In this document: in pieces, positions 9,940-53,967 of the stretch | Layout: each line of letters opens with the position of its first letter | Numbering within the stretch: position 1 is the first letter of the stretch | Origin: an uncultured Alphaproteobacteria bacterium | GTDB taxonomy: Bacteria > Electryoneota > RPQS01 | Direction of reading: 5' to 3' | NCBI GenBank assembly: GCA_964444755.1 | Contig: CAYUIF010000001.1 | Location: 238,402-302,401 of the forward strand | Length of the DNA stretch: 64,000 nucleotides | Made by a program: the position numbers and the translations under genes | Notes under the pieces: model-generated | Seen by the model: only the letters and a program-made list of their open reading frames with translations | Told to the model about the DNA's origin: nothing | Databases searched by the model: none

Positions 9940-10066
9940 CGCCGCATGGATTTTCCCATGCGGCGTTTTGTATCTGTATTCTGTAGGGGCACAGCGCGCT
10001 GTGCCCTTCTCTTCGCCGAGCGAGGTCGCCGACCTCGCCGGAATCATTCACTTTTTGTATCGGTTG
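9940..10066. repeat. REP-like palindromic elements
   Basis: tgtaggggcacagcgcgctgtgccc (GTAG + hairpin) and ttcgccgag-cgaggtcg-cc-gacctcg-ccggaatc. Confidence 0.55.
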
Positions 10067-17128: not shown

Positions 17129-18151
17129 TTATCGAATCGCAATCGCGCCGGTTTCCACCGGATAAGTCGGTGTGAGATTCGTCCACACATTCGCGCCCAG
17201 AATTGCCGGATCATCGGTGATGGCGTTCACGCCCATCCGCATCGAATAAGCGTCATAACCCAGCGCGTTGAGATAAGCGTCCATCTGCATGGAGGTTTGA
17301 CCCGTGAAACAGTACACAACCACCGGACGATCGGTGGGAATGTACTTCAGATTCTCGGTAAGACCCAGCGATCCGGGCTGAAAGCGATAGGAACCGGGAA
17401 TATGTCCCGCATTGTAGTTGGCTTCCGGCCAGTAGCACAAGAGGAACCAGTCGTTGCTGGCGTCGCCGTCGTTCAGGTTGGTATAAACGTCCGCCGCGCT
17501 CTTCATCTTCCAGTTTACCGGGGAAGCCGTGAGCTGCTGGGAAATGCGGCTGACGAACATATCAATCGCGCTGCCGCTGGCGCTCGGATTCGGGAACGCG
17601 TATTCGGTGGTCAGCGGATGATTGGCTGTTTCCAACGTCTGTCCGCCGCGGGTCAGGGTGTACCAGCCGCCGCCCGCGCCGGTCTGGGCTGTATCGCTGG
17701 TCCATGAACAGAAGCCCCACTTGAGATTGTAGGCGTTGAGACCGACCAGGTTCAAGTAACTGGTGGCAAAACTGGCGGTTTGGCCCGTATAGCAGTAAAC
17801 CACGATCTTCTTATCCGTCGGCAGATCCGCGCGATAGTTCACTAAGTCTGCGGCATCCCAGTGATGCGCGCCGGGAATGTGACCGCGCACCGTATCATCC
17901 GCCAGCGAGCGAATGCTGATGATATAGGGTTGAGTTGCATCACCGTCGTTCATTTCCGTCCATAACACATCCGCGGTGATATTCTTGGTTGAACCGAGAA
18001 TACTGTCGCCCCAGGCTGCCATCGTTTGAAACGCAGTAGTAGCTGGCGGATTGTTGTTGTCGCTGCTGTCGTCATCATCGGAACAACCGATGAATACCGT
18101 TAAACTGGCCATGAGAATCATGGGGACCAGCCATTTCGCAAATGCCTTCAT
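17129..18151 (-). CDS. Lipoprotein with two rhodanese-like domains
   Basis: Lipobox LTVFIGC. Two rhodanese active-site-type loops, VVYCYTGQTASF and VVYCFTGQTSMQ, each preceded by HIPGA/HIPGS. Confidence 0.85.
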   Translation of the reverse strand: MKAFAKWLVPMILMASLTVFIGCSDDDDSSDNNNPPATTAFQTMAAWGDSILGSTKNITADVLWTEMNDGDATQPYIISIRSLADDTVRGHIPGAHHWDAADLVNYRADLPTDKKIVVYCYTGQTASFATSYLNLVGLNAYNLKWGFCSWTSDTAQTGAGGGWYTLTRGGQTLETANHPLTTEYAFPNPSASGSAIDMFVSRISQQLTASPVNWKMKSAADVYTNLNDGDASNDWFLLCYWPEANYNAGHIPGSYRFQPGSLGLTENLKYIPTDRPVVVYCFTGQTSMQMDAYLNALGYDAYSMRMGVNAITDDPAILGANVWTNLTPTYPVETGAIAIR

Positions 18152-18208
18152 GTACCTCTCCTTGAATGGGTGTTGTGTGTTGTTATTCGTGTATCGAATG
18201 ATTTCTAC

Positions 18209-19309
18209 TTACCAGGGCGGCGGTCCGTCGGGAACGATCACTCCCGCATTGGCTTGCCGCTCGTTCGCTGATGATAATTGATCCAAATCCACCTGCCGGA
18301 GGAAGAAACCTTCCGGAGTGTTGGGAGTCAGGTGGCAGGCTGCGTTGCAGCTCTGTCCGCCGCTGGTATCGGTCTGCGCCGTCCAGCGTACGATATTGTG
18401 CGGAGTTGCGTATTTGTACGTCGGCAACGATGCATAATTCGGACTGGCGATCCCCCACGGTGTGTACGTATTCTCGGATACCGGGATATGCCGCAGCACG
18501 ACATATTCGCCGGGGCGCTGATCGGGAATCGGATTCCGTCCGATCTTGAAATCTATCCACGATGGTTGCTGAATGCCGTCGCCCGCATGACACTCCGCGC
18601 AATTCTTGTAGGCTTGCGAGTGGCACACCTGACACTGTAAATCGTCGCCGTGAACGGTGTGATACGAATTGGCCGCCAGCGGACTGTGGCAGTCGCGGCA
18701 GCTCACCGGATCGTCCACGTCATAGCGGGTTGTGTACTCCGTTCCGTCGCCATGAATCTTCTGGCCGCTGTGACAGGCTTTGCAATGCATCGCATTGGGA
18801 ATGTAGTGGACGTCGGCGCGGTATCCGGCGTTTTCGCCGGTATATTCAGGACCGATGCGGCTGCCGTGACAAGCGATGCACTGGTTGGTCATATCCGGAG
18901 TGCGGCGGATGTTATGGCCTTGAATAAACCCTCCGCCCACCGACTTCGGACGGCTGATGTGGCATGATCCGCAGCTCGCATGGCACTTGTTGCATTCGGC
19001 GTTGTACGCCTCATAGGCGTGCGGATCGGAAGTCAAAGCCCGCCCCGTGCGTGCTTCGAAGAGCGTATGATACCCCTTCATGGTCGTATGCAGACTGTGC
19101 GATACGTTATTCGCGATCTCCTGATGGCACATCCCGCACTGGTTGACGGAGATCTCCGACGGATCGGCAATCATTCCGTCGTGCGCTTCTTCCTTCGTGA
19201 GTTGTCCGGCCCGTCCGCCGTGACAGATGCGGCATTCCAGTGCGTGGGCGCTGTTGCGGAACGCTTCATAACCGCTGCCTGTCAGAATTACTTTTTGCCA
19301 TCCCTCCAA
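18209..19309 (-). CDS. Multiheme c-type cytochrome (9 CxxCH + 1 CxxxCH), body segment without its own signal peptide
   Basis: CRICH, CGMCH, CNKCH, CGSCH, CIACH, CKACH, CRDCH, CQVCH, CAECH, CNAACH. Begins at a TTG, 18 nt downstream of and in frame with the 19328-19549 ORF. Confidence 0.8.
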   Translation of the reverse strand: MEGWQKVILTGSGYEAFRNSAHALECRICHGGRAGQLTKEEAHDGMIADPSEISVNQCGMCHQEIANNVSHSLHTTMKGYHTLFEARTGRALTSDPHAYEAYNAECNKCHASCGSCHISRPKSVGGGFIQGHNIRRTPDMTNQCIACHGSRIGPEYTGENAGYRADVHYIPNAMHCKACHSGQKIHGDGTEYTTRYDVDDPVSCRDCHSPLAANSYHTVHGDDLQCQVCHSQAYKNCAECHAGDGIQQPSWIDFKIGRNPIPDQRPGEYVVLRHIPVSENTYTPWGIASPNYASLPTYKYATPHNIVRWTAQTDTSGGQSCNAACHLTPNTPEGFFLRQVDLDQLSSANERQANAGVIVPDGPPPW

Positions 19310-19327
19310 CGGAGAGACTGAGCCGCC

Positions 19328-19549
19328 TCAGCCTTCGCCGCTGTCATCGCCGGAAGAGCCGGTATCCGGCAGCGCAACGGCTTTCAGCATGGTTTCGTTG
19401 GTATGGCAGCCGATGCAATCCGCGGTGTTGGCTTCTCCCGCGGGAGCGGCCGGATTATCCTCATCGCTGCATCCCCAAAAGGCGAAGGCGGCGAAGAGTA
19501 ATCCGATAGCAACCAGTACCCAAAACGTCATGGGTTTCATATCGTGCAA
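19328..19549 (-). CDS. Lipoprotein signal peptide + first heme-binding site (CIGCH); probable N-terminal part of the multiheme cytochrome, cut off by an in-frame TGA
   Basis: MKPMTFWVLVAIGLLFAAFAFWGC lipobox, then CIGCH. The TGA at 19328-19330 is in the same frame as the 366-aa cytochrome ORF. Confidence 0.55.
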   Translation of the reverse strand: MHDMKPMTFWVLVAIGLLFAAFAFWGCSDEDNPAAPAGEANTADCIGCHTNETMLKAVALPDTGSSGDDSGEG

Positions 19550-19727
19550 CCTCGTTTGTCCGAAGATGGATTGTTAATTGGGACTAAATTCACATGCCGG
19601 GGAACAACAATCAAATGAGTATCACATTAAGCCCTGATTCTGCATATATAATTTCATAAATAACAAAGATAAGATTGCAATTCTGGCAGACTCATTATGG
19701 TCGGCTTAGAGAATCTGACTCCCGTGA

Positions 19728-20168
19728 TTACTGTGCTCTCTGGTTCAGTATCTCGATGATCTGCGGAACCTGCGGATCTTCGGGAACCAGCTTCTGATAT
19801 TCCCGGAACAGTTCAATTGCGGTGCGGGCATCACAGTAGGATTCATAAATTCCCAGCACCAACACCCGGTTGGCCGGATCGTCGAAGCTGCGGTGTCCGT
19901 TGCCGATAAACGAAGCCAAATCCGGGCACGGACAATCCTCCGCCTTTGGATCGGTGTCCAGAATGATTGCGGGATTTTCGGTTAGTAGTTCGAAATAGAG
20001 GCGGTAGCCGTCCCGTAAGCGACCGGTTTCGATGTAGGCAATAATCAGTTTCTTGCGAGCCTTCAGATGTTCGGGATGAAGGCGAAGGTATTCTTCCAGG
20101 ATCGGCACCGCCCGCTCATAGCTGTGGGTCAGAAAAAAGTAATTGCCGATCATCTCCGAGATCGCCAT
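19728..20168 (-). CDS. Small TPR-like protein
   Basis: 146 aa from MAISEMIGNYFFLTHSYERAVPILEEYLRLHPEHLKARKKLIIAYIETGRLRDGYRLYFELL. Helical repeat character. Confidence 0.55.
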   Translation of the reverse strand: MAISEMIGNYFFLTHSYERAVPILEEYLRLHPEHLKARKKLIIAYIETGRLRDGYRLYFELLTENPAIILDTDPKAEDCPCPDLASFIGNGHRSFDDPANRVLVLGIYESYCDARTAIELFREYQKLVPEDPQVPQIIEILNQRAQ

Positions 20169-20248
20169 CGGACCTCCATGTCCAGTTGTTAAAAATGTAA
20201 CAAGCAACATTCAGACCATCTTGTAAAAATAATAACTTAACAAAAAAC

Positions 20249-20269
20249 GGTGAAACATAAAGTTTCACC
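20249..20269 (-). terminator. Rho-independent terminator of the sigma-54 activator gene
   Basis: ggtgaaac-ataaa-gtttcacc hairpin, followed on the minus strand by GTTTTTTGTT. Lies in a very AT-rich spacer. Confidence 0.55.
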
Positions 20270-20374
20270 GCCTGAGACATAGTGTCATTAAAACAATTTT
20301 TTCTTATAAAAAACAAAACTATAAATAATTTTTTAACAATTTGTTTCAGTTAACAAAAAATGAAACAGCTGTCA

Positions 20375-21688
20375 CTACTGTTCCATCTTATATTGCTTCA
20401 TCAACCGCCACAAAGTCGTTCGGCTGATTCCTAAAAGTTCGCAGGCTTTTTGTCGGTTCCAGTTAGTATCCCGCAATGCGCGAAGAACTCTCGCCTTTGC
20501 GGTTGATCCGCCCTGGTCATTGATCGAAATCACACTCTGGTTCTCCCTGACTTCAGGAGGCAAATGACCCAGTTGCACAGATCCGCCACGGGCTCGAATC
20601 ATGCTATACTCCAGAGCGTTCTCTAATTGCCGCACATTTCCCGGCCATTGGTAGCGTGCCAAGGCATCGTAACACTCATCGGTGAGCTGCGCTTTCGGGT
20701 AATTATTTTTGTTCTTCAGGCGGTTGAATAGACTCTCAACCAGTAACAATACATCATTTCCTCGTTTGCGCAGCGGCGGCAATTCCATGGGGACGGTTGA
20801 CAGACGGTAAAATAGATCCTCGCGAAACTTTCCCTCGGCGATGAGCTTTCGTAAATCCCGGTTGGTCGCGGCAATCACCCGGACATCCACTTTGATCGTC
20901 CGGCTCCCGCCCACCGGTTCGAACTCCCGCGATTGCAGCACTCGCAGCAGTTTAAGCTGAACGGCCGGAGACGCTTCCCCGATCTCATCTAAAAATATCG
21001 TTCCCCCGTCCGCCGTCTCGAACCGCCCCGCCCGGTCGGTGTAGGCTCCTGTGAATGCTCCCTTTACATGACCGAATAACTCGCTTTCCAGAAGATTTTC
21101 GGCAAAAACGGAGCAATTGACCTTCACATACGCCTTGTTCCGGCGGGGACTGCGGGCGACGATGGCATCCGCCGCCAATTCCTTCCCGGTTCCGCTTTCG
21201 CCCGTGATTAATACCGTGGTCTCCAACCCCGCCACTTGCTCGATCAGCTCGAAAACCTCCAGCACACTGCGATCTCGACCGATCATTCCTTCAAAATGAT
21301 CCTCGGCCGCCAGTTGACTACCCCGTTGCGCGCTATCCACTGGGCGAAACACCATGATTCCGCCGGTGGTCTCGCCGGTTTCATCTTTCAGTTCCGAAGA
21401 ATTGACCAGCACCTGAAGGGTTGCTCCATCCTTGCGGGTAATAGCCATCCGGGTATCCCGGAGTGGTTGGCCAAGTTCCAGGGCGCGAAATAACGGGCAC
21501 TCATCCTCACACCGGTCCGTCTTAAATACGCTCCGGCAGAATAACCCCGTTTCTGCCGACGTTGAGAAGCCCGTCAGGCGTTCGGCGGACGGGTTCATAT
21601 AGGTCAGCTTCCAGTTGCGGTCCACGATATAGACGCCTTCGTGAAGCGCATCCAATAGCGCATGAAGTGCGAAATCAGATAGGTCCAT
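20375..21688 (-). CDS. Sigma-54-dependent transcriptional activator with N-terminal PAS domain (NtrC family)
   Basis: PAS (YIVDRNWKLTYMNPSAERLTG). AAA+ Walker A GESGTGKE. GAFTGA sigma-54 contact motif. ESELFGH. C-terminal Fis-type HTH (ACELLGISRTTLWRLMK). Confidence 0.92.
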   Translation of the reverse strand: MDLSDFALHALLDALHEGVYIVDRNWKLTYMNPSAERLTGFSTSAETGLFCRSVFKTDRCEDECPLFRALELGQPLRDTRMAITRKDGATLQVLVNSSELKDETGETTGGIMVFRPVDSAQRGSQLAAEDHFEGMIGRDRSVLEVFELIEQVAGLETTVLITGESGTGKELAADAIVARSPRRNKAYVKVNCSVFAENLLESELFGHVKGAFTGAYTDRAGRFETADGGTIFLDEIGEASPAVQLKLLRVLQSREFEPVGGSRTIKVDVRVIAATNRDLRKLIAEGKFREDLFYRLSTVPMELPPLRKRGNDVLLLVESLFNRLKNKNNYPKAQLTDECYDALARYQWPGNVRQLENALEYSMIRARGGSVQLGHLPPEVRENQSVISINDQGGSTAKARVLRALRDTNWNRQKACELLGISRTTLWRLMKQYKMEQ

Positions 21689-21891
21689 AATTCTAATATA
21701 CAGGACGCTCCGGTGTTATGCAATCCGTGGGAGGCTCAAATCCGTTGGTTGATTTGAAAATCCGGCTGATTATTTCTGTTCGCATTCCAAATCGCGTTGA
21801 CTTCTAAGGGCACATTTGCTAAATTATTCACCTAAACTTCCATTGCTTGCATTATTCCCCCCGTTTACCGGCTCATATCGTGAGGTGCCCC

Positions 21892-23256
21892 ATGTCCAAG
21901 AAATGGTTTTGGCTTTTATTGATCATCCCCGCCCTGATCTTCTGGGGATGTCCCAAAGACGATGAAGAGGAAAACAACACTCCCCCGGTAGTCGAAGATA
22001 ACGCCAGCGGCAGCGTGACTTCCACCACCTCCGGCACAATTCAAACTCCCGCCGGCGCCCGCATCGTCGTTCCCGTCGGTGCCGTTCCGCAGACCGAAAG
22101 TGGTCAACCCGGTACGATGGTCTTCTCGATTGAGAAGAACAACAACATTCTGGTCACTCCGCCCACCGGTGAATCGGTGGTCTCGGATGTTTATCAGTTC
22201 GGTCCCGAAGGCTTCGTTTTTGCCCGCCCCGTCGAGGTCGCGATTCCCGTTCCCGGTGATACCGATCCCGGCCAGGTCAGCATCTGGCGGAAGAATCCCA
22301 CGACCGGTGTGGCGGAATTCTACGGCTCCGAATACGATCCGGCCACCCGTACGGTGAAAGCCCAAACCTACCAGCTTTCCCCGTGGTTCATCACTAACAA
22401 CAACCGCGTGGATGATGCCTCCGCCTGCATCCGTGTCAGCAACACCAGCCTATCAACCTGGCTGTATGTCTGCATTGAAGAGTACACCCTGGACTTCCCG
22501 GAGCAAGCCACGTGGCTGCCGGAAGGCGATGGGAACGGTTGCCTGTGGGCTCCCATCGGAACCATCGGTTGGGCTCATGAAGGCAACTGGTATGTCCCGC
22601 AGGGTGTTTACAAACTCTGCCTGCAGCGAGAAAACGAGCAACAGGATCGCTACGAACACATTTTTGTCGAGAACGTTCAAGCCACCGCTCCGTGGCACTA
22701 CAATGATCCCCGCTGTGCAAACGTTTCTTCCGGTGATTTCTTCCCCGCCGATACCGGACGTTGCGGCTGCATTCCCACCCCTACTACATCCGTGGGAACC
22801 GGCGACATTCAAGTCACGCTTACGTGGTATAACCAGCAATCCCTCGACCTCGATCTGTGGGTTATGGATCCCGATAGCGAATGGTGCTACTACGGCAACG
22901 GTCAGGCTCCCGGAACAACAACTTCCGGCGGTCAATTGGATCGTGATAATCTCTGCGGAAATTACGTCAACGGTCGTCCCGAGAATATCTATTGGACGCA
23001 AACCCCGCCCAATGGTCAATACGTCGTGGCGGTGGACTGGTTCTCCAGCTGCGGCAATGAGCTGGGTAATCAATCCTACAATGTCCGCACCGTAGTCGGC
23101 GGTACGACCCGCACGTTCAATATGGTGATCGAGCCCTATGCGAATATGCAGGAAGTCACGCGCTTCACGATCAGCGGCAACACAATCAATTTCCTGCCGC
23201 CGCGCAGCGATGTGGACTATTCCAAGCTGCCGCGTCCGAGCAAGACTCAGAACTAA
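21892..23256 (+). CDS. Lipoprotein of unknown function with C-terminal beta-sandwich (PPC/DUF2135-like LDLWVxDP) domain
   Basis: Signal and lipobox MSKKWFWLLLIIPALIFWGC. C-terminal DIQVTLTWYNQQSLDLDLWVMDPDSEW...NGQYVVAVDWF. Confidence 0.65.
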   Translation: MSKKWFWLLLIIPALIFWGCPKDDEEENNTPPVVEDNASGSVTSTTSGTIQTPAGARIVVPVGAVPQTESGQPGTMVFSIEKNNNILVTPPTGESVVSDVYQFGPEGFVFARPVEVAIPVPGDTDPGQVSIWRKNPTTGVAEFYGSEYDPATRTVKAQTYQLSPWFITNNNRVDDASACIRVSNTSLSTWLYVCIEEYTLDFPEQATWLPEGDGNGCLWAPIGTIGWAHEGNWYVPQGVYKLCLQRENEQQDRYEHIFVENVQATAPWHYNDPRCANVSSGDFFPADTGRCGCIPTPTTSVGTGDIQVTLTWYNQQSLDLDLWVMDPDSEWCYYGNGQAPGTTTSGGQLDRDNLCGNYVNGRPENIYWTQTPPNGQYVVAVDWFSSCGNELGNQSYNVRTVVGGTTRTFNMVIEPYANMQEVTRFTISGNTINFLPPRSDVDYSKLPRPSKTQN

Positions 23257-23292
23257 TCGTCGAGTGTTCTGACACTCGATTGGCGAACCACA

Positions 23293-23326
23293 AGACAGCC
23301 CCCGAACCATGCGGTTCGGGGGCTGT
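23293..23326 (+). terminator. Terminator hairpin after the lipoprotein gene
   Basis: acagcccccgaacc-atgc-ggttcgggggctgt, then tctt. Confidence 0.55.
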
Positions 23327-23344
23327 TCTTGGTCCATGAAAAAG

Positions 23345-23367
23345 CCGCCCGGCATCGCCGGGCGGCT
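23345..23367 (-). terminator. Terminator of the RRM gene (minus strand)
   Basis: gccgcccgg-catcg-ccgggcggc, followed on the minus strand by TTTTTCAT. Confidence 0.5.
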
Positions 23368-23389
23368 CTCGAATCTACTTCCGGTTGGC

Positions 23390-23695
23390 TTACCAGCGAT
23401 TACCGCCGCCGCCACCGCCGCCCCGCCGCTCGGTGCGACGCGGACGTTCGGACTGCGGACGCGCTTCGTTGACCAGAATGTTGCGGCCCTTCAGATCGGT
23501 TTCGTTCATCTTGGTGATGGCTTCACGAGCTTCCGCTTCGTTCGGCATTTCCACAAAACCAAAACCCTTGGAACGGCCGGTCATACGGTCGGTGATGACG
23601 CTGGCCCGATCCACGGCGCCGTGGGCTTCAAAAGCTGCACGAAGATCGTCTTCGGTCACGGTGTAAGGGAGATTCCCAACGTAGATGTTTACCAT
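23390..23695 (-). CDS. RRM-domain RNA-binding protein with Gly-rich tail
   Basis: MVNIYVGNLPYTVTEDDL... RNP-1 KGFGFVEM. RRGGGGGGGNRW C-terminus. The ORF-track start at 23866 is rejected in favour of the conserved MVNIY start. Confidence 0.9.
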   Translation of the reverse strand: MVNIYVGNLPYTVTEDDLRAAFEAHGAVDRASVITDRMTGRSKGFGFVEMPNEAEAREAITKMNETDLKGRNILVNEARPQSERPRRTERRGGGGGGGNRW

Positions 23696-23982
23696 GATTT
23701 GATCCTTTCCGGACTTGGGGATGGTGCCCCGAACTTTGCCACCTTTACCATCGCATAGCCGAAAGGGACTCGAAACATCTACCTCCCCACGTGACAGGGC
23801 CTGCGAGAGGGTCCCCATGGACCCCACCTTTACAATGTCAATTAACAGAGCACAATGAGTGCCCATACAGACAGCGACAATATACCGAACAAAATGTTGA
23901 ATCGCAAGTGAAAAGTGAGCTTAAAATACTCTATTTGATGAGTAATTATGCAACACGTTTCATGCAAACTATATGGTGTCGG

Positions 23983-24957
23983 CTATTTAAGAAGTACTAC
24001 CGGTTGTGATAGAGTTCTTTTCGGACTCGTAAGTCGCACATAATACATGCCCGACGAAAGTTGACTTCCCTCAATCTGAACTCTATGAAAACCAGAACTC
24101 AACGGACCCTTTGTCAAAGTCTGGACACGCCTGCCCAAAAGATCATAAAGTGCCACATCCATCACCATCGGCGAGGACAACGTGAACGAAATCGTGGCCG
24201 TGCTGTTGAAGGGATTCGGGTAGACCTCGCTTAATGCGAACTCCTCTCCGATGGCCGCGCGAGGCTCGTCGGTCCACGAGGTCGCTTCGAGAGTGATGTC
24301 TATTCCCTCGGGGAAATTCGATTCCTGTACGACGATGGCGGTGGGAGTGCCGCCGCCGTAGACGCCGCGCGGTTCGCCGGGATCCCATGCGAAGTTGCCG
24401 TCGAGATCCATGAAGGCATAAGCATAGAAGGTGGCGAAGCTGTCCACCAGCGCGACGTAATCGCCGTTGCCGGTATTGTTGAAGAGCAGGCTGCCGCCGT
24501 GGGGGAGGTCGAGAAAATCGGGAGTGTAATAGGCGAACAGCAGGGTGGTTCCGGTGCCCGCGCCGCTATAGCTGATGGTTCCCGAAAAGCCGCCTTGATT
24601 GGGCGGATGGAGTTCGATGTTCACGCCGGTGGTATCGGAAATCAACTCGAAGACCTGCGGGATATCGCCGCCGTAGAAACCGCGCGGTTCGTCCAGATCG
24701 GGAGTGATGCTGGTATTCAGATCCTGATAGGCAAACAGCACATAGCCGCCTTCATCCAAACCCGAAAAACCGTAGGTGTTGATGAACGGAATGGCGATGG
24801 TGATGTAGAAGGTATCGAGGGTAGTGGGCACGGCAAACACATAGCGCAGCGGCAAGCCCGTTCCGCCGGTGATAGTGCCGGAGATGGAATAGGCTTGGGC
24901 AGTACCCGCCCATAGAATGAGGCACAACAAACAGATCGCGAATAATCGGCTCTTCAT
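23983..24957 (-). CDS. T9SS (Por) C-terminal sorting-domain secreted protein
   Basis: Signal MKSRLFAICLLCLILWAGTAQA. C-terminal VYPNPFNSTATISFTLSSPMVMDVALYDLLGRRVQTL...GMYYVRL...VVLLK matches the TIGR04183-type domain. Confidence 0.8.
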   Translation of the reverse strand: MKSRLFAICLLCLILWAGTAQAYSISGTITGGTGLPLRYVFAVPTTLDTFYITIAIPFINTYGFSGLDEGGYVLFAYQDLNTSITPDLDEPRGFYGGDIPQVFELISDTTGVNIELHPPNQGGFSGTISYSGAGTGTTLLFAYYTPDFLDLPHGGSLLFNNTGNGDYVALVDSFATFYAYAFMDLDGNFAWDPGEPRGVYGGGTPTAIVVQESNFPEGIDITLEATSWTDEPRAAIGEEFALSEVYPNPFNSTATISFTLSSPMVMDVALYDLLGRRVQTLTKGPLSSGFHRVQIEGSQLSSGMYYVRLTSPKRTLSQPVVLLK

Positions 24958-25139
24958 AAGAACTCCCGTCGGCATAAGTGGCGATGACCCAGTGTACGAA
25001 GATTTCCGCGCATTTTCAAATTCTACTTACGTTACACAATTCATGCCGAAATCCGGCGGTCCGCTCAATAAATTTAAGGCGATAGGTGGAGTGGCATGGA
25101 AATATTTTTTTGCCGAACGAACTACCTAAGAACAGAGAA

Positions 25140-25260
25140 AAACTGAAAATCTGAAATACCGAAACGCCGAAATTCGAACTATAGTTGATTTCTCAAGAGG
25201 GGCAATCCAGCCATAAAAGATATGAACATTTGTTCAGATTGTCAAGAGGAAGGTGAAGAA
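25140..25260. promoter_or_regulatory. Duplicated intergenic module containing a GAAC-N4-GTTC (Cheo/LexA-like) palindrome
   Basis: ctgaaaatctgaaata ... aagatatGAACatttGTTCagattgtcaagagga. A near-identical module lies at 61345-61445. Confidence 0.45.
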
Positions 25261-25289: not shown

Positions 25290-25546
25290 CCCAGCTTGCT
25301 GGGCTTTGTTTCGCCGAGTGGGGTTTGTTTCCCCCTGCTTCAGCGGGGGGATGAAAGGGGGGCGTATTCCGGGCACAGCACGCAGTGCCCCTACGGAAAA
25401 GAACGGGCGGGTACGCTTGCACTTTACCCGCCCCTACGGAAGACGGCCATAATGAATTATGGCCCTACAAAACGCAAGATGTTACAATCGGTAGGGGTCG
25501 TTCGAGAACGACCCGCGGGCGGTTCGCGAACCGCCCCTACAGCACG
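25290..25546. repeat. Composite REP/BIME-like element
   Basis: ttcgccgag...; gggcacagcacgcagtgcccctac; ggccataatgaattatggccctaca; cgcgaaccgcccctacagcacgtt. This block is about 80% identical to 51215-51480. Confidence 0.6.
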
Positions 25547-25843
25547 TTACTTGAGCAGCACCATCTTCCTTATCTGTGACCGCTCCCCCGCCTGCACCCG
25601 TGCGATATACACTCCCGACGGCAACTCACTTGCGTCAAACACCTGCCGATGCTCTCCGGCATTCAGCCGCCCGAGGTTTTCTTCATAGATGGTTTGGCCG
25701 AGAACGTTGTAAACACTCACCATCACCAGCACCGAGTGTGGAAGAGTGAAGGATAGAGTTGTCGTAGGATTGAAGGGATTGGGATAAACCAAAAGATTGA
25801 AGGATGAGGGATAAGGAATGAACGGATCATCTACACCGACCCG
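25547..25843 (-). pseudogene. Detached T9SS C-terminal sorting domain, separated from the upstream FG-GAP gene by an in-frame TAG
   Basis: Continues in frame after the TAG at 25844-25846 as RVGVDDPFIPYPSSFNLLVYPNPFNPTTTLSFTLPHS...MVLLK. The 51589-53967 paralog has the homologous DPFIPQSSSF..YPNPFNP join intact. Confidence 0.6.
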
Positions 25844-27061
25844 CTAGCTTGTATCTCCGGCCACGACGATACATCGTCCGCGCCAGCCTTCCGTGTCCAG
25901 ATCATCCCACGCTCCGATGGCGAAATCATCAATCCCGTCTCCGTTCACATCCCCCAAGCCCGCCGCTGTCTGAAGACTGACGAGATTCTGCCAACCCCGA
26001 CCATAAATCGTCCACGCCGGTTGAGAGTTAAGCGCCGACTGTCCGAGATACAGCGACAGAACGCCCCACCATGATCCGGGACAATAGCTCCGGATTAACG
26101 CCATGTCCTTGAAACCATCTGCATTTATGTCCCCTAAGCTTGCAACCACTTCCGCACCGGACCCACAAGGGTAGGACAATTGGACATCTGCAACGGAATG
26201 AAGAACGGAACCACCCAAATGAACATCTGCACCACCTTGATATGTATAGATCAGCTCGTCGCAACGGTTTGCATTTAGGTCATTGACAATCCCTTCCGGA
26301 AATATCCGCATGTTCGGCCATGTATAAGCCGGAATTGTGTCGGGATATGTGTTTCCGAGGAAAATGTAAGTCGTGTTTGACATCAAGGTCGCACTCACCC
26401 AATCGCTATATCCGTCATCATTCAAATCGCCGTAGGATTGGGGGAGTGCTTGGTAGGAATTCCCCGATGGGCTGGTTCGACTCCAATCCGGTATCCAATC
26501 AATTATATTGTTGCCATAGAAAATGTCAATATAATCAGGGATTGTATGATACCAGAAAAGATCGGATTGTTCGTCGCCATTGAAATCACCCACGGTTCCG
26601 AAATAGTCGTTTCGTCCAATTAGTAGGCTGTATTCCGGAATCGTATCCGCGGCATTGCCACCCCAGAAGACATCAACTATGCAGTAATCAAAACTTTCCG
26701 ACCGGCGTTTCGTGAACCAATCCACATACCCATCCCCATTCACATCGTTCAGAATCCCCGCCATTCCCCAGCCCCACAGATTGGACGGACCGAAGATCGT
26801 CATGTAAGGAATGTTGGAGGGTGGATTGCCGCCGTGAAAGAACTCAACATATGGCCACTGATTCCCCACAACAATCCGGTTTCCCCCCGCCGCTACCGCC
26901 CAATCATCGAATCCGTCATCGTTCTGATCGCCCAGCGGAAGGATCTCGTAGCCGTATAGCGAGCTATCCTGTAATCCACTCCGATCCCAGATCACCTCCG
27001 GCGACCACGGCTGGGCAAGCAGGGAAGATGCGAGGAACAGGATAATGAAGAGAGGTTTCAT
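25844..27061 (-). CDS. Secreted FG-GAP/VCBS-repeat protein (truncated before its T9SS C-terminal domain)
   Basis: Signal MKPLFIILFLASSLLAQP. Repeated D.N.DG..D calcium-binding FG-GAP-type loops (DQNDDGFDDW, DVNGDGYVDW, DLNDDGYSDW, DINADGFKDM, DVNGDGIDDF). Confidence 0.75.
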   Translation of the reverse strand: MKPLFIILFLASSLLAQPWSPEVIWDRSGLQDSSLYGYEILPLGDQNDDGFDDWAVAAGGNRIVVGNQWPYVEFFHGGNPPSNIPYMTIFGPSNLWGWGMAGILNDVNGDGYVDWFTKRRSESFDYCIVDVFWGGNAADTIPEYSLLIGRNDYFGTVGDFNGDEQSDLFWYHTIPDYIDIFYGNNIIDWIPDWSRTSPSGNSYQALPQSYGDLNDDGYSDWVSATLMSNTTYIFLGNTYPDTIPAYTWPNMRIFPEGIVNDLNANRCDELIYTYQGGADVHLGGSVLHSVADVQLSYPCGSGAEVVASLGDINADGFKDMALIRSYCPGSWWGVLSLYLGQSALNSQPAWTIYGRGWQNLVSLQTAAGLGDVNGDGIDDFAIGAWDDLDTEGWRGRCIVVAGDTS

Positions 27062-27560
27062 GGTACGGTCTTTAGTAGGCGGTTAGCCGGGCAGGTTGAG
27101 AACCTGCCGCGGCGAGGTCGTTGCGAGAAGATTCCGGGCAGATCAGGGGATCTGCCTCGGCGAAGACGGGCACGGCATGCCGTGCCCCTACGGAAGACGG
27201 CCATAATAAATTATGGCCCTACAAGACGGACGCGATGAATCGGCCCCTACAGGACGATGCGTTGCAGTTGTTCCGGCGGGGTAGAAAACCCCGCTCGGCG
27301 AATACATGGGCACAGCACGCTGTGCCCCTACGAAAACAAAGATTCCGGCCAGGTTGCGGTCTGCGACCTTAACCACGGCTCGGCAAGATCGTTACGTGAA
27401 GATTCCGGGCAGATCAGGGGATCTGCCTCGGCGAAGACGGGCACGGCATGCCGTGCCCCTACCGCGTGTGCGATTCCGGCAGGGGTAGGGACCCCGCTCG
27501 GTGAATACGCGTGCAATGGTGCAATATGCAGGGCTTTACAAGGAAAGGCAATTGAATCCC
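27062..27560. repeat. REP/BIME-like element array
   Basis: gattccgggcagatcaggggatctgcctcggcgaa (twice); gggcacggcatgccgtgcccctac (twice); ggccataataaattatggccctaca; ttccggcggggtagaaaaccccgctcggcgaa; gggcacagcacgctgtgcccctac. Confidence 0.65.
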
Positions 27561-29811: not shown

Positions 29812-30144
29812 ATGACTCAAAAAATCGAATCCATCGAACCCCGCATTCCCATCAACCGGGAACAAATCAAGGCCTTCTGTGAGAGGTGGAAGATCACCGA
29901 ATTCTCGCTGTTCGGCAGCGTACTCACCGACGATTTCGGCCCGGACAGCGACGTGGATGTGCTGGTGACGTTCGAGACGCCCGCCCTGTGGTCGTTGCGA
30001 GATTTGGATCGCATGGAAGATGACTTGAGTATGATTCTCGGCCGACGGGTGGATCTCTCGACGCGCTTAAGCGTAGAGCATATGTCCAATCCCATTCGAC
30101 GGAGTTCCATTTTGCGTGGATCGCGAGTCATCTATGCGTCGTGA
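29812..30144 (+). CDS. Minimal nucleotidyltransferase (MntA-type antitoxin)
   Basis: GS-x10-DxD motif FGSVLTDDFGPDSDVDVLV. 110 aa. Overlaps the downstream HEPN gene. Confidence 0.8.
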   Translation: MTQKIESIEPRIPINREQIKAFCERWKITEFSLFGSVLTDDFGPDSDVDVLVTFETPALWSLRDLDRMEDDLSMILGRRVDLSTRLSVEHMSNPIRRSSILRGSRVIYAS

Positions 30145-30478
30145 GAAAGAATATCTGCACGACATATATCTCGCGGCGAACGACATTTTGGACACCGTAG
30201 GTGGACTGCAATTCGAGACGTTTGCGGAGAATCGCATCCTTCAGCATGCAGTCAAGGATTGCCTGTCCGAGATCGGCGAAGCCAGCAAGAAGCTGTCAGC
30301 GGAATTCAAGCGACAGCATCCGCTTGTTCCGTGGGAAGAGTTGGTATCTCGGCGAAATCGGCTTGCACATGAGTATTTCCGCATGGATTTGGGTGAAATG
30401 TGGCACGTTGTCGAGAACATCATCCCCGGACTGATCGAGTATCTCGGACCGTTGGTTCCGCCCGAAGAATCCCTCTAA
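30134..30478 (+). CDS. HepT-type HEPN (DUF86) toxin
   Basis: R-x4-HxY motif RNRLAHEY. About 114 aa. Translationally overlapped with the NTase gene. Confidence 0.8.
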   Translation: MRREKEYLHDIYLAANDILDTVGGLQFETFAENRILQHAVKDCLSEIGEASKKLSAEFKRQHPLVPWEELVSRRNRLAHEYFRMDLGEMWHVVENIIPGLIEYLGPLVPPEESL

Positions 30479-44081: not shown

Positions 44082-44225
44082 TCCGCCGTGGTCGGTCTCC
44101 CGACCGGCCATGGCCCATCGTCATTATTCTTCAGGAGGTTCTCATGAAATCGGCAACTGTGACCTGTCTCCTGTTCTTATCCGTATCCCTTTCTTTTTCG
44201 CAACCCCCCGATACCCTGTGGATGC
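43840..44225 (+). repeat. Cassette junction: conserved C-terminal-domain coding block + intergenic RBS + conserved signal-peptide coding block
   Basis: The ~240-nt C-terminal-domain coding segment recurs at 45327-45568, 46752-46992 and 48050-48291 (about 80-90% nt identity). The RBS/signal-peptide block (ttcaggaggttct.atgaaatcggcaactgtgacctgtctcctg...) recurs at 45583-45680. Confidence 0.75.
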
Positions 44226-46992: not shown

Positions 46993-47043
46993 CCATAATT
47001 GAATTACATTCTATGTTGAACTACACCTTTGTCGGGAGGGACA

Positions 47044-48291
47044 ATGAGAATCATTCTGCGCGCCGCATTAATCCTGTTTTTGTCGGTCACGGCGGTTAAG
47101 GTTTATGGATCTGTAGAACTGGAGACGTTTCGAATATGGGGGATGGAGAACAGTCTTTCCGTAGGATGGAGTACCAGCTCCGAAACCGCTAATGCCTTTA
47201 TAGAATTGTGGAGAGCGGAAACAGAGTCGGGTCCTTATGTTCTAATAAGCATTGAACAAGGACATGGTACGACAACCAATACGAGTAGTTACTGGCACTA
47301 CAACTCGGGACTCTTGCCGAATCAGCGATATTTCCATTATTTGATCGCCGTTGATACCGCCGGATACCGCGAGATTGTCAGCGATACGGTATCCGAGCGA
47401 ACTGCTCCGATAAAAATTAATGGGATACCGGGCTATCCGAAATGTCCCACGGGATATCGGGTTTCGTGGACGGTTCATTATGAATATGATATTCTGGACT
47501 ACTCGCTTCGTCGTGGACCATACGGTGGATGCAATACTGATATTGCCGTCATCCCGTCACAGGGTAATACGGACTCGATTCGTACGTATTACTATACCGA
47601 TCTCGATGCGCCCTTGCGCGTGAGCACTTACTGCATCGTCGCTCGTCGTATGGACTCCACGACTTATGCACCGCTCTTCTTCTATATTCCAGAGGAACCG
47701 GTAGCTATAGCAAGCTTGGATTCCTTTGCCGTCACACCAGCATCTTCGAATGTCGAAATATTCTGGCGAACAAATTATGAAAGCTGGCTGCGCTGTTACG
47801 AAGTTCAGCGGCGACGTACGAGCGATTCCAGCTATACCGTAGTCGCGGAATTGCAGGGTGCAGGATATTATGCCTACGATCGCAGTTACACGGTGGTTGA
47901 TACAACTCTCACCGCTGGTGGCACATACAATTATCTGGTCGGCTATACGGATGCCTACGAGGTCTTTCGCGTGTTGTGCGATTCTACGGTGGAGGTAGTG
48001 CTTTCCGGTGCGGAGTATGAGCCGCTGGCACAATCGTTTGCTCTGTCCGCTTTCCCCAATCCGTTTAATCCAACGACCACAATTTCGTTTTCACTTCCAA
48101 AATCCGCCCTTACTCACTTGATAATCTACGATCTCTTAGGCCGTGAAGTGGCGATATTGACGGATGGCATGCTCGAAGCGGGGGAGCATCGCTTTTCGTT
48201 TGACGGCTCTGATCTACCGTCGGGATTGTACTTTGCTCGACTGAGAAGCGGTGAGTTGACTGCCACGCATAAACTCCTATTAGTGAAATAG
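47044..48291 (+). CDS. T9SS-sorted protein with FN3/Ig-like body (415 aa)
   Basis: GGGAGGG RBS. Signal MRIILRAALILFLSVTAVKVYG. Same-family C-terminal domain ...FPNPFNPTTTISFSLPKSALTHLIIYDLLGREVAIL...LLLVK. Confidence 0.75.
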   Translation: MRIILRAALILFLSVTAVKVYGSVELETFRIWGMENSLSVGWSTSSETANAFIELWRAETESGPYVLISIEQGHGTTTNTSSYWHYNSGLLPNQRYFHYLIAVDTAGYREIVSDTVSERTAPIKINGIPGYPKCPTGYRVSWTVHYEYDILDYSLRRGPYGGCNTDIAVIPSQGNTDSIRTYYYTDLDAPLRVSTYCIVARRMDSTTYAPLFFYIPEEPVAIASLDSFAVTPASSNVEIFWRTNYESWLRCYEVQRRRTSDSSYTVVAELQGAGYYAYDRSYTVVDTTLTAGGTYNYLVGYTDAYEVFRVLCDSTVEVVLSGAEYEPLAQSFALSAFPNPFNPTTTISFSLPKSALTHLIIYDLLGREVAILTDGMLEAGEHRFSFDGSDLPSGLYFARLRSGELTATHKLLLVK

Positions 48292-48519: not shown

Positions 48520-50919
48520 GTGCGATTTTTCGCGGTAAGCCTTGTTATTGTTCTATTTTGCATGGGTCTGGCCGATGCGGGAACCCTCACGCCCGGTCTA
48601 ACCGATGCCTACTCGCGGGCTGCCGATTCCGAGTTGCTGCCCGTTCTGATCACGCTGGCCGATTCCGCCTCCGCCTCCCGAATGGCCGAGCAATTGGCCG
48701 CTGAAGGTCTGCCGCTGGCGCAGATTCATCAGCGGGTCATGGATGCTCTGACCTCCCAAGCCGCCGCTCGGCCAGCGGAACTGCTCCGGCTGCTGGAAAC
48801 CATGACCAGCAATGGCCAAGCCCGGGCGGTTCGACCGTTCTGGCTTGCCAATGTTATTGCCGCCGAGCTGACGCATTCCGCCGCCGAGACCTTAGTCGAA
48901 CAAACCGGCATCGAAGAAATCGGACTCGATGAAACCGTCACGCTGCAGCGCAATCAACCGCTGCTGTCCGACGGCGGCGCGCAAAGCCTGAGCGCCATCG
49001 GCGCGCTGGATGTGTGGCTGAAGGGCACGCGCGGCGATGGCCGTATTGTGTGCGTGATCGGCGACGGTCTTGCTTCAACTCATCCGGCTCTCAAAAATAA
49101 CTGGCGCGGTAAAACGGCCCCGGCGAGCGAATGCTGGTATGATAAAAACGGCGGCCCTCCCGCCTCCTGCGGCAGCGAGAGTAGTTATCTGCTGGGTCTG
49201 CTGTGCGGCGCGCCCGCTGGGAATAATCCCGCCACCGGAGTTGCGCCCGCCGCTAATTGGATCGCCGCTAATATTTTCTGCGCGGGAACCGCCCGGCTTT
49301 CCGATGTGCTCGCCGCTTATCAGTGGGCGGCCGATCCCGATGGCAACTCCGCTACCGTGAATGACGTGCCCGATGCGATTTTAAGTCCGTGGCAAGTGAA
49401 TGGCGATTGCTTAGGCGCGGAGCCATCGCATGTATGGCAATTCGTTGCCAATCTTGAAGCGCTGGGACCGTTGCCGGTCTTTGCCGCCGGATCACTGCAC
49501 GCTCCGGCTTCGCTTCCGCAATGTTTTACCATCGGCAATCTTGACATCCGCGGCGGCCAGTCCATGCCCGAAGCCTCGGCTCCGCAAGGTCCGTCGCCCT
49601 GCGATCCGCGCATCACCAAGCCCGATCTTTCCGCCCCCGGCGCCGCCGTGCATACCACCGGTGAAACCGGCTACGTGGATGTGACCGGCGCGCCCGCCGC
49701 CGCCGCTTACGTCGCGGGCGCTGTCGCGCTGATCCGGCAGACCAATCCGCAGCTTTCCGCCACGGCCATAAAAAATCTGCTGACCGCTTCCGCTAAAGAT
49801 CTCGGCACTCCCGGTGCCGATAACCGCTTTGGCAGCGGCTTGCTGGATATTTCCAAAGCGGTGGAAATGGCGGTCTCCCGCGAGAATACCGGCAGCGTGC
49901 AGGTGACTGTGAAGTGTGACGGCAAGCCGCTCTCCGGCGCGCGCGTGGTGTTGTCAGGAAGTGGCGGTACTTTCAGTGCAAATACCGATAACGGAGTTGC
50001 GCTTCTGAATCGTATCCCCGCTGGCGAAAGCTATACCATCACCGTGGGCCGCTTTGGCTATACGGTGGATGCGCCCGCCGAACCCGTTGTTGTGAACAAA
50101 GGCGAAACCGCGCGCGTCACCGCCGCGTTGGAACCGTCATACGCTGATAATGCCGAATTCGATCAAGGCTGGAGTTTGGGAATTGCGGGAGACAACGCCA
50201 CCAGCGGGCAATGGCTGCGGGCGATTCCGGTGGGTTCGAAAGTCACAGGCCGGCCCGTGCAGCCCGAGATGGATGCCGATCCCGACGGGAAGTACTGCTT
50301 CGTGACGGGCAATGCCGACTCTCGCGATGCCGAAGCCAGTCAGGCGGATGTGGACGGCGGTCGCACCACCCTGCAATCGCCGCAGTTTGATCTGCGCGAT
50401 GTCGAAGCGCCGGAACTCTCTTTCAGCTACTGGTACAGCAACAACCAAGGCACGAATCCCGGCGAAGATGCATTCCGCGTGCAAATTTCTTCCGATGGCG
50501 GCGCGACATGGACGGACTTACTCACGACGACGCAATCCACCACCGGCTGGACGACACAAAAATACTCGCTGGACAGTTACGTCACCGCCACCGAGCGCAT
50601 GAAATTGCGGTTCATCGCCGAAGACCGCGAGCCGGGATCGCTCGTGGAAGCGGCGGTGGATGCGATTCGCATCGTCGGCACCCCCTCCGCACCCGAAGCG
50701 CCGCAGGATCTCACGCTGGACGTGCAATTCAATCAAGTCATTCTCCGCTGGCACAGTTCCAAGGGCGCGACCGCCTATCGCGTGTATCTTTCCGGTAATG
50801 CCGACAAGGTGGTGGATCCTGCCAATCTCTATGCCACTGTTTCCGATACGACCCTGCTGGTTCCCATGAGCGATATCCCCTACGTGCAGTTCTATTTCCA
50901 AGTGACTGCCGTTCGATAG
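48520..50919 (+). CDS. Subtilisin (S8)-like secreted protein with apparently degenerate catalytic triad + Ig-like + FN3 domains
   Basis: GTG start. Signal MRFFAVSLVIVLFCMGLADA. S8 scaffold recognisable (VCVIGDGLASTHPAL corresponds to VIDTGxxxxHPDL; VTGAPAAAAYVAGAVAL corresponds to GTSMAAPHVAG), but the Asp, His and Ser positions are not conserved. C-terminal FN3-like domain (YRVYLSG). Confidence 0.7.
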   Translation: MRFFAVSLVIVLFCMGLADAGTLTPGLTDAYSRAADSELLPVLITLADSASASRMAEQLAAEGLPLAQIHQRVMDALTSQAAARPAELLRLLETMTSNGQARAVRPFWLANVIAAELTHSAAETLVEQTGIEEIGLDETVTLQRNQPLLSDGGAQSLSAIGALDVWLKGTRGDGRIVCVIGDGLASTHPALKNNWRGKTAPASECWYDKNGGPPASCGSESSYLLGLLCGAPAGNNPATGVAPAANWIAANIFCAGTARLSDVLAAYQWAADPDGNSATVNDVPDAILSPWQVNGDCLGAEPSHVWQFVANLEALGPLPVFAAGSLHAPASLPQCFTIGNLDIRGGQSMPEASAPQGPSPCDPRITKPDLSAPGAAVHTTGETGYVDVTGAPAAAAYVAGAVALIRQTNPQLSATAIKNLLTASAKDLGTPGADNRFGSGLLDISKAVEMAVSRENTGSVQVTVKCDGKPLSGARVVLSGSGGTFSANTDNGVALLNRIPAGESYTITVGRFGYTVDAPAEPVVVNKGETARVTAALEPSYADNAEFDQGWSLGIAGDNATSGQWLRAIPVGSKVTGRPVQPEMDADPDGKYCFVTGNADSRDAEASQADVDGGRTTLQSPQFDLRDVEAPELSFSYWYSNNQGTNPGEDAFRVQISSDGGATWTDLLTTTQSTTGWTTQKYSLDSYVTATERMKLRFIAEDREPGSLVEAAVDAIRIVGTPSAPEAPQDLTLDVQFNQVILRWHSSKGATAYRVYLSGNADKVVDPANLYATVSDTTLLVPMSDIPYVQFYFQVTAVR

Positions 50920-51588: not shown

Positions 51589-53967
51589 TTATTTCAAGAG
51601 CACTATCTTCCGCACTTGCGACCGCTCCCCCGCTTGCACTCGGGACAGATATACTCCCGATGGTAGTTCGCTTGCATCGAACAGATGCCGATGTTCTCCC
51701 GCGTTCAACCGCCCGAGGTTTTCTTCATATACGGTTTGGCCGAGGACGTTGTAAACGCTCACGGTTACTGGTGCCGAGTGCGGCAACGTGAAGGATAGTG
51801 TTGCAGTAGGATTAAACGGATTGGGGTAAGTGGAAAGAGTGAAGGATGAGGATTGAGGGATGAAGGGATCTCTCGCAGATTGGGATGACAAATCCATTCG
51901 CAATAAGAAACCGGTAGAAGGTTGCGGGAACATGGCATTAGAAGTGATCGGAAACTCATTGGAGAATGTGTGTCCGGCTAACCAAATAGCACCGGGATGG
52001 TCATATACCAAGGCATCCGTCCATTCGTCGTATTCTCCACCGATATACGTGCAGTATTCCAACGCTGTAAAATCGGAAGACAACCGACAGAGAAACAAAT
52101 CTTCGCCGTTCTCTTCACCGGGGTGAAGTGTACTGTCATAGGCATCGGGAGTTACGGGTAAATCGCCGCTATGGGTAATCCCAGGAATCAGAATCGACAC
52201 CGCAGATTCCACATAGGCATTATTCCAAATATCATAATCACTACCGCCGAAAAATGTCCCCCGCAGAGGAGTATTCGGCAATTGAAAATCCAAGATGAAT
52301 CCATCATAAAATGAAGGTGGTCCGGGATTCAATCCCCCCGGTGGCATCGGGAAGTTGGGATTATTCGTATAGCCGATTAGCAATAACCGGTCGTCCCCTT
52401 GCACAATGATTTGGCAAAGATAGTCGTTTTCATATCCGCTATGGGGCGCGCCCAAATAGGATGCATATTCGACACTATTACTATTCAAATCCACTCGCGC
52501 GAAATACCCCGAATACCGCCCCGTTGTCTCGGAGATGAATGCATCGGGAGTGGTTGGCAATCCTCCTGCACCATTATAGTCTAATAACACAATCCACAGA
52601 TATCCCGGCGATAGAACCACAAGATCCATGGGAAACCATCTTCCACCCAAAATCGGACTGTAAAAGGTCGAATAGACTAATGCCCCAGTTGTGTCAAAGA
52701 TTGCTAAAAATGTGCATTCAATACCTACGAACTCGCCCCACATCGCACCGGGAGTAACGGGAAAGTCTGAGGATTGTGTCCTCCCAGAAATATAGAATCG
52801 CCCCAGTGAATCTACCTCACAGTCGGATAAGGATTCATCATCCACACCTCCCAAATAGGTGCAGAACAGCAGACTATCTCCGTGTGATGTCAAATGAATC
52901 ACACCAAGTTCACTGGAAGCATTTACTGTATCAAATGCGTCCGGCGATAGCGGCCAACCGGATGAAGCATTACTTGCGATATATATGGAATTATCAGTAA
53001 GCGTTCGAACTTTACCGTAAAATCCGCTACCTCCCGAGATATAGGTTGAAAAGATCAGGGAATCGGCATTCGGTGAGAATTTCATCAGGAAACCACCGCC
53101 AGTGCCGGTCTCCTGAAACGCGCCGGGAGTTGTGGGAAAGTTTGCGCGCCAAGTATCTCCATGAATCAATTTATTGCCAAGACCGTCCTTTGTCATATCA
53201 AAGACTTCATCGCGAATTGACCCGGCAATGTACGTACTATACACCAGCGGATCAATCACCAGTTCTGCACTGCGGTTGTACTCCTCACATATCAGACCAT
53301 AACGATTGTTTCCCAACAGCCGATACTGCACCCGAATGCTGGCTTGCCTGCGGCTTTCGATCTGAAAAGCGAACGGGGCCTTTTCGTAAAGATCGCCCAC
53401 GGACGTGACCAAAACCAGCTTGCCCTCGCCATCCATCCGCAACGGCTCATCCAAGCCCTCATACTGAACCACGATTCGGCTGACATCGGCACCCGGCTTG
53501 ACATGAAAAAACGTTTCCACGCCGCGCGGATCGGCCTTATATTCCACATCAATCCCCGGCCACACCTCCTTGGCAATCACTCTGCCGTAGTTAGGCACCC
53601 GGCTCTTCCACTGGCTTTGGTCTCTTCCCTTGAAATAGTTGCTGTAGCTGGTGAGCCTGTCCTCCGGCACCAGTTCGTACTGTTCATTACACCCCACTAA
53701 CCTCACCATCACCGCATGCCCGCGCACCGTCCGCGCCGTATCTTGAGGCACGTATCTTTCGGCTTCATCCCTCATCCTTCGTCCTTCATCCTTTGCTGTC
53801 ACGGCAATCGTCATCCCCGTCCCGGTCAGAAAATAGCTCGCGTTCCCTACGTCACACCGATAGGCAAACTCCCCCTCCCACTGACCCTGATTCGGCTCGA
53901 AGTGGAAGGGAGCGGGGAGCGCGAAAGCGACGGAAACGAAAAGAAGAGTGAGGAAGAAAGGTTTCAT
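51589..53967 (-). CDS. T9SS-sorted beta-propeller (SBBP-like repeat) protein (792 aa)
   Basis: Signal MKPFFLTLLFVSVAFALPAP. C-terminal YPNPFNPTATLSFTLPHSAPVTVSVYNVLGQTVYEENLGRLNAGEHRHLFDASELPSGVYLSRVQAGERSQVRKIVLLK is nearly identical to the detached C-terminal domain at 25547-25792. Confidence 0.8.
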   Translation of the reverse strand: MKPFFLTLLFVSVAFALPAPFHFEPNQGQWEGEFAYRCDVGNASYFLTGTGMTIAVTAKDEGRRMRDEAERYVPQDTARTVRGHAVMVRLVGCNEQYELVPEDRLTSYSNYFKGRDQSQWKSRVPNYGRVIAKEVWPGIDVEYKADPRGVETFFHVKPGADVSRIVVQYEGLDEPLRMDGEGKLVLVTSVGDLYEKAPFAFQIESRRQASIRVQYRLLGNNRYGLICEEYNRSAELVIDPLVYSTYIAGSIRDEVFDMTKDGLGNKLIHGDTWRANFPTTPGAFQETGTGGGFLMKFSPNADSLIFSTYISGGSGFYGKVRTLTDNSIYIASNASSGWPLSPDAFDTVNASSELGVIHLTSHGDSLLFCTYLGGVDDESLSDCEVDSLGRFYISGRTQSSDFPVTPGAMWGEFVGIECTFLAIFDTTGALVYSTFYSPILGGRWFPMDLVVLSPGYLWIVLLDYNGAGGLPTTPDAFISETTGRYSGYFARVDLNSNSVEYASYLGAPHSGYENDYLCQIIVQGDDRLLLIGYTNNPNFPMPPGGLNPGPPSFYDGFILDFQLPNTPLRGTFFGGSDYDIWNNAYVESAVSILIPGITHSGDLPVTPDAYDSTLHPGEENGEDLFLCRLSSDFTALEYCTYIGGEYDEWTDALVYDHPGAIWLAGHTFSNEFPITSNAMFPQPSTGFLLRMDLSSQSARDPFIPQSSSFTLSTYPNPFNPTATLSFTLPHSAPVTVSVYNVLGQTVYEENLGRLNAGEHRHLFDASELPSGVYLSRVQAGERSQVRKIVLLK

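Follow-up and report, generated by a model that had tools for sequence, protein, structure and literature searches.

Why does an in-frame TAG separate an FG-GAP protein from its T9SS sorting domain (CTD)? In the 64-kb window, by which we mean the whole stretch of DNA that was analysed, the minus-strand ORF at 25844..27061 runs from MKPLF to CIVVAGDTS (C-terminal end RGRCIVVAGDTS) and then meets a TAG at 25844–25846, which reads CTA on the plus strand. The 405 codons that precede this premature stop (25847..27061) encode a putative Sec-type signal peptide, MKPLFIILFLASSLLAQP, and an FG-GAP β-propeller. The signal peptide was read by eye; homologs keep the same segment, and the structural model has an N-terminal helix at residues 2–15. 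The body matches FG-GAP_3 (34.4 bits) and FG-GAP (25.5 bits), both above the Pfam cut-offs. The TAG itself is codon 406 of 505, counting the final TAA, and directly follows residue 405, within the linker that joins propeller and CTD. Past the TAG the frame reads RVGVDDPFIPYPSSFNL and runs into an 81-residue ORF (25547..25792; TTG start, VYPNPFNPTTTLSF...MVLLK-TAA), which opens at a TTG within the continued frame. In all, 98 codons follow the TAG in frame (25550..25843, minus strand; RVGVDDPFIPYPSSFNLLVYPNPFNPTTTLSF...RKMVLLK); they carry the detached linker and a complete type A T9SS CTD, untranslated as encoded, and extend to a TAA at 25547–25549 (minus strand). This TAA abuts ...MVLLK and is the ancestral full-length stop, homologs finishing at the same aligned position. 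The 98 codons match profile positions 1–74 of 75 of PF18962 (Por_Secre_tail) at 47.4 bits (cut-off 27) and TIGR04183 at 49.4 bits (cut-off 23). Searching the six-frame translation of the window with a family-specific CTD HMM gave eight CTDs, among which the detached one has the highest Pfam score. Seven of the eight form the C-terminal end of open (stop-to-stop) segments of at least 347 residues, and the CTD of the FG-GAP gene alone stands by itself, on its 98 codons. The full-length match and the long segments that carry the other seven CTDs argue that the open frame past the TAG is not there by chance. The first-pass annotation had claimed that the TAG cuts the 405-residue FG-GAP protein from a T9SS CTD in the same frame, and on this point the sequence, Pfam and TIGR04183 agree: as encoded, the polypeptide with the cargo domain does not include the CTD, the TAG lying between them.

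Homologs indicate that the TAG interrupts a single gene. The read-through product, used as query against about 5.8 billion protein clusters, returned 3,167 matches. Approximately 118 of the best 120 of these 3,167 are single proteins of ~500 residues that join FG-GAP repeats to Por_Secre_tail and cover 96–100% of the query, and the named homologs among the best 120 are proteins of Calditrichota or KSB1 MAGs. Essentially all homologs have the two parts joined, in keeping with the earlier view that one gene is broken here. When the 29 closest homologs are aligned, GDT(T/S)-L-R(A/V) is seen at the junction, and the column that holds the TAG contains Leu in 23 proteins, Trp in four, Arg in one and Ile in one, with a TAG in none (0/29). 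The closest homolog listed, P0002 (MFZ5434622.1, ‘T9SS type A sorting domain-containing protein’), is 63% identical across the full read-through length and shares the putative signal peptide, the repeats of the propeller, the GDTS-L-RV linker and the CTD with the window gene; it is a member of the ~500-residue family, with a seven-blade-type FG-GAP propeller, of Calditrichota, KSB1 and related MAGs. Its codons at the junction are GAT ACA AGT CTG CGC GTT, against GAT ACA AGC TAG CGG GTC in the window; the TAG is one base away from TTG (Leu) or TGG (Trp). Two matches among the best 120 lack a CTD, P0056 being frameshifted and P0115 a fragment. The N-terminal ~370 residues of P0056 are near-exact to those of P0016, after which its sequence is unrelated and out of frame. 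This points to a frameshift or an assembly error and hence to an apparent second disrupted member of the FG-GAP and CTD family. With homologs that are longer and homology that continues in frame past the stop, the 405-residue gene would be classed as a nonsense pseudogene or truncated allele. For annotation, this means that 25547..27061 should be described as one interrupted gene, not as a 405-residue protein and an 81-residue orphan.

The nearest relative is not the same gene in another strain. P0002 comes from a genome (GCA_049322395.1) that matches the window at ~95% identity over the cytochrome locus described below, yet P0002 itself is only 63% identical and sits at a different locus, where its neighbours are malic enzyme and CstA. 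We therefore rejected it as an ortholog and regard it as a paralog. The family is multi-copy within genomes, with several matches on one contig. No ortholog of the FG-GAP gene was found in the collections searched: exact look-ups of the 405-residue and 81-residue products for same-species copies returned no match, a DNA pattern in which the stop codon was left as NNN gave 0 matches in JGI metagenome contigs, and the best match in a scan of GTDB species representatives reached just 46% identity. The 405-residue product is represented by one record, a single gene call on a 317,452-bp NCBI contig.

To place the stop in the predicted fold, we used an AlphaFold2 model built from the homolog alignment, which has a mean pLDDT of 86 and is all-β over residues 23–400. 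The last propeller strand of the model spans residues 395–400 and is followed by a low-confidence linker (401–419, with its stretch at 410–417) and a CTD β-sandwich (420–502). In the model, the TAG thus lies five residues past the last propeller strand and ahead of the low-confidence stretch at 410–417. Since the stop is predicted to fall in a disordered linker, the truncated product would retain the whole propeller and lose the sorting domain alone. Foldseek matched the body to integrin α propellers with a probability of 1.0 and an E value of approximately 1e-15. The likeness to these seven-bladed FG-GAP propellers is one of body fold, with Ca-binding-like D-x-N-x-D-G motifs conserved in the family, whereas identity is just 12–15% and the FG-GAP protein is bacterial and secreted.

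The predicted layout of the read-through product is that of type A T9SS cargos (TIGR04183/PF18962; for example, RgpB), in which a Sec signal, a functional domain and a linker are followed by the CTD, an Ig-like domain of ~75 residues with a conserved hydrophobic-K motif at its end; the window gene has the same motif. No T9SS machinery (SprA/Sov, PorV, PorU or GldKLMN) was recognised among the proteins scanned in the 64-kb window, and the seven other CTD cargos imply a working T9SS. One of these cargos, the 792-residue protein at 51589..53967, had been put forward in the first-pass annotation as a paralog with an intact body-to-domain junction, DPFIPQSSSFTLSTYPNPFNPTATLSF. The junction part of that comparison holds, because the two genes have the linker and CTD in common from DPFIP onward: over 25550–25843 of the FG-GAP gene and 51592–51870 of the 792-residue gene, the identity is 83% over 93 amino acids and 78% in nucleotides. 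The paralogy does not, as the bodies (DUF7948 and FG-GAP) share no similarity. The relevant intact comparators are therefore the ~500-residue family members and not the 792-residue protein. The CTD of the FG-GAP gene is only 72% identical to that of its own nearest family member, and its greater closeness to an unrelated DUF7948 cargo shows that, within the genome, cargos with no other relationship share CTD subtypes. The window also contains a tandem array of four CTD proteins (769, 474, 464 and 420 residues) on the plus strand at 41772–48291. These have no other Pfam domain, their CTDs are 71–77% identical to one another, and a subtilase gene (48520..50919) comes next.

How old is the stop? 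We compared the detached tail with the intact CTD of the 792-residue protein, which is its closest CTD, in a relative-rate test with the P0002 CTD as outgroup. The tail had five unique amino-acid changes and the 792-residue CTD had six, which shows no acceleration; unique nucleotide changes numbered 21 and 32, respectively, and 13 of the 21 in the tail were at third codon positions. Relative to the P0002 gene, the tail has an omega of 0.12 and the body one of 0.215, although these are rough values because dS is saturated. The detached tail is thus still coding-like and undecayed, which argues that the stop is young. The lack of a second disabling lesion sets a weak bound on its age, at a neutral divergence below ~0.1–0.3 substitutions per site. 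We also considered whether the TAG arose at a recombination junction and rejected this, as similarity to the FG-GAP family crosses the TAG and the DNA similarity to the 792-residue CTD begins ~15 nt downstream of it. We think it probable that the TAG is a real allele, a recent single-base nonsense mutation in a linker codon of the T9SS cargo. It would probably have arisen from the Leu codon TTG; the Trp codon TGG is the other one-step origin that agrees with the residues of the homologs.

The surroundings of the gene suggest why such an allele could be tolerated. A Logan contig, L081 (SRR32167788), aligns to window positions 17658–25249 over 7,592 bp at 97.4% identity, with no net gaps and the same gene structures. 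The homology breaks at window position 25249 (L081 position 2456), at the TTGACA-17-TATCTT promoter of the 330-residue CTD gene. Past the breakpoint, L081 has an AIPR (abortive infection) gene in place of the REP-like repeats and FG-GAP gene of the window. The FG-GAP gene is flanked on both sides by REP-like arrays. The downstream intergenic array (25300..25546) lies beside the breakpoint and consists of short palindromic units, each a hairpin followed by CCCTAC, of repeat families D3 and D4; the upstream one (27062..27520) has like units of families D2–D5 and I1. A multi-copy family, the bracketing by REP-like arrays and the AIPR gene in a 97%-identical strain together suggest that this FG-GAP copy is probably dispensable. 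In a dispensable accessory copy at a variable spot, a nonsense allele would be tolerated. Each REP-like unit pairs a short GC-rich palindrome with a trailing CCCTAC, as in GGGCACGGCATGCCGTGCCCCTAC and GGCCATAATGAATTATGGCCCTAC. Further intergenic units were seen at 51122–51353, 9984–10020, 54251–54284, 61555–61584 and 62497–62560, and such units also adjoin the P0002 gene in the related MAG.

Alternatively, the TAG may stem from an error in sequencing, polishing or consensus calling, or may be a minority variant that the metagenome assembly fixed, in which case the true gene would be intact, with a Leu or Trp codon, and would encode a normal 504-residue T9SS cargo. We consider this unlikely, and several observations speak for it. 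The source is a MAG and a single record, the tail is perfectly intact and has the top CTD score in the window, and a change of one base would restore TTG or TGG. The codon is also atypical for a native stop: among 13 TAG stops, the one at 25844–25846 is the sole one preceded by C, and it forms one of the four CTAGs of the window, where it sits in a palindromic GCTAGC. Since CTAG is avoided approximately 15- to 60-fold in this genome, a new CTAG should be rare and would fit an error just as well, and base-calling errors related to methylation are conceivable in this context. Set against these points, consensus assemblies seldom carry substitution errors, and the 7.6 kb in common with L081 contain neither indels nor broken genes. 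The other in-frame stop of the window is a genuine selenocysteine codon (see below), so that the sequence gives no sign of being error-prone. The undecayed tail and the atypical stop fit either a very recent mutation or a wrong base. The first-pass annotation, which offered a fresh nonsense allele or an error, had chosen the right pair of alternatives. For CTAG as a whole, we counted 4 sites in 64 kb (5036, 25844, 38193 and 60145; three of the four within GCTAGC), where trinucleotide frequencies predict 61 and base composition predicts 245. The window has no excess of broken genes, the other same-frame ORF pairs being adjacent genes or non-coding frames.

If the nonsense allele is real, translation would stop after residue 405. 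The product would still be exported by Sec and fold as a complete propeller. Without the CTD, neither transfer to the outer-membrane translocon of the T9SS nor sortase attachment at the surface could take place, and the product would remain periplasmic or be degraded. The CTD remnant, which has no signal peptide, would have no useful expression. These expectations take RgpB of Porphyromonas gingivalis as their model. When this gingipain lacks its CTD, it builds up in the periplasm, and the loss of just two C-terminal residues blocks its export (PMC5445135). By analogy, T9SS export of the CTD-less propeller would be impossible and the propeller would be retained in the periplasm, so that the earlier claim that loss of the CTD stops export of the cargo accords with what is known for RgpB. 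As encoded, the window gene is a natural equivalent of the RgpB CTD-deletion mutants (PMC5445135). It differs from them in that the CTD is cut off by a stop codon, not deleted, and in that the host is a Calditrichota-like MAG, not a member of the Bacteroidota. A real allele would thus amount to a natural CTD-deletion experiment in a phylum with no prior T9SS study.

Could the truncation be real and also useful, with a CTD-less propeller that is periplasmic or otherwise released taking on a new role? The stop falls exactly in the disordered linker, approximately where sortase would cut, the propeller is left whole and the putative signal peptide is intact. However, a stop anywhere in the gene would have drawn notice, so its position weighs little. 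No homolog terminates at this junction, the CTD-less P0056 and P0115 being a frameshift and a fragment, and an old, selected form would be expected to show a decayed tail, which this gene does not. We regard a selected truncation as very unlikely.

TAG is a normal terminator in the window. Of 54 non-overlapping ORFs of at least 100 residues, 29 end in TAA, 14 in TAG and 11 in TGA. Thirteen of the 14 TAG ORFs were counted, the one dropped being a spurious plus-strand ORF opposite the detached CTD, so that 12 ORFs other than the FG-GAP gene terminate at TAG. Two intact CTD cargos (23983..24975 and 47029..48291) have their TAG no more than four residues past the end of the CTD profile. Stop usage and these CTD proteins argue against reassignment of TAG, which we rejected. 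Programmed recoding of this one UAG, through pyrrolysine, a suppressor tRNA or regulated read-through, would yield the whole cargo, or else both a periplasmic and a surface form. We consider such recoding highly improbable. The frame after the stop does stay open and conserved, the window does hold one genuine recoded stop, a UGA read as selenocysteine, and a C does follow the TAG. A stop codon followed by C is a weak termination context in Escherichia coli. Nonetheless, the TAG is absent from all 29 homologs, its column is a variable linker residue (Leu, Trp, Ile or Arg) with no catalytic role, and termination of 13 of the 54 ORFs by UAG speaks against any reassigned meaning. RNA folding around the stop was no better than that of shuffled sequence (z = 0.09), and the window contains no tRNA genes and no Rfam matches. 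The terminator-like hairpin right after the TAG is at chance level, as three such hairpins were found and 3.2 expected. A deliberately leaky UAG, owing to the weak UAG-C context or a suppressor, that yields mainly periplasmic propeller and a small CTD-bearing, surface-anchored fraction is the least probable reading of all, although if true it would let a stop codon act as a switch that sends one T9SS cargo to two locations. We see in the TAG of the FG-GAP gene a premature stop of the ordinary sort, either recent or artefactual, with no new mechanism behind it.

The other in-frame stop of the window has a different explanation. It lies in the gene for a lipoprotein-type multiheme cytochrome with approximately ten CxxCH motifs (18209–19540, minus strand), which is followed by a rhodanese gene (17129..18151). 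The TGA at 19328–19330 (minus strand), 71 codons from the start, stands in the motif SGEG-U-GGSV. The same split is found in L081 and L082, which are ~95–97% identical strains. In a JGI metagenome, a homolog with 65% identity likewise reads TSGEG-TGA-GGSVPPLEGWQK at this point, downstream of a lipoprotein signal and a CxxCH motif. In four of six full-length homologs, the TGA column contains Cys. Conservation of the TGA, together with Cys in homologs, argues that it is a selenocysteine codon and not a lesion. This would also explain why ~110 of the 120 cytochrome homologs listed are called as proteins of ~360 residues that begin just past the TGA. Judged by this pattern of conservation, the cytochrome TGA is a conserved selenocysteine codon. 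The first-pass annotation had counted two interrupted secreted-protein genes within 64 kb; that count falls, as the window has one lesion and one recoding site, not two lesions.

A published multiheme selenoprotein, MccSep, has five hemes and its selenocysteine near residue 325 (PMC13510729). The cytochrome of the window differs from it in both respects, with about ten CxxCH motifs and a selenocysteine 71 codons from the start, and no PDB sequence relatives of the cytochrome were found. It may represent an undescribed selenoprotein family tied to sulfur chemistry. The selenocysteine UGA of the cytochrome and of MccSep resembles the TAG of the FG-GAP gene in being an in-frame stop inside a secreted-protein gene with a frame that is conserved beyond it. 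The UGA, however, is kept in distant homologs and replaced by Cys in others, whereas the TAG is unique to the window and stands at a variable Leu. Because the TGA is a selenocysteine codon and the TAG a lesion or an error, in-frame stops of this MAG need to be judged case by case. The selenocysteine cytochrome is the more interesting object of this neighbourhood. A premature stop in one of eight T9SS cargo genes is within the normal bacterial pseudogene load and matters little alone.

Two further features were noted near the FG-GAP gene. On the plus strand at 29812–30478, an MNT nucleotidyltransferase and a HepT-like (HEPN) protein form a toxin–antitoxin pair, which sits in a nucleoside-salvage cluster of cytidine deaminase, uridine kinase, thymidine kinase and a nucleoside transporter. 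Inside the FG-GAP ORF, at 26502–26529 on the minus strand (codons ~178–187, IDIFYGNNII), there is a sigma-70 consensus with 12 of 12 matching positions (TTGACA, a 16-nt spacer and TATAAT). By our own estimate, approximately 0.001 such matches would be expected by chance in the 2.85-kb region, and this internal consensus may be a coincidence.
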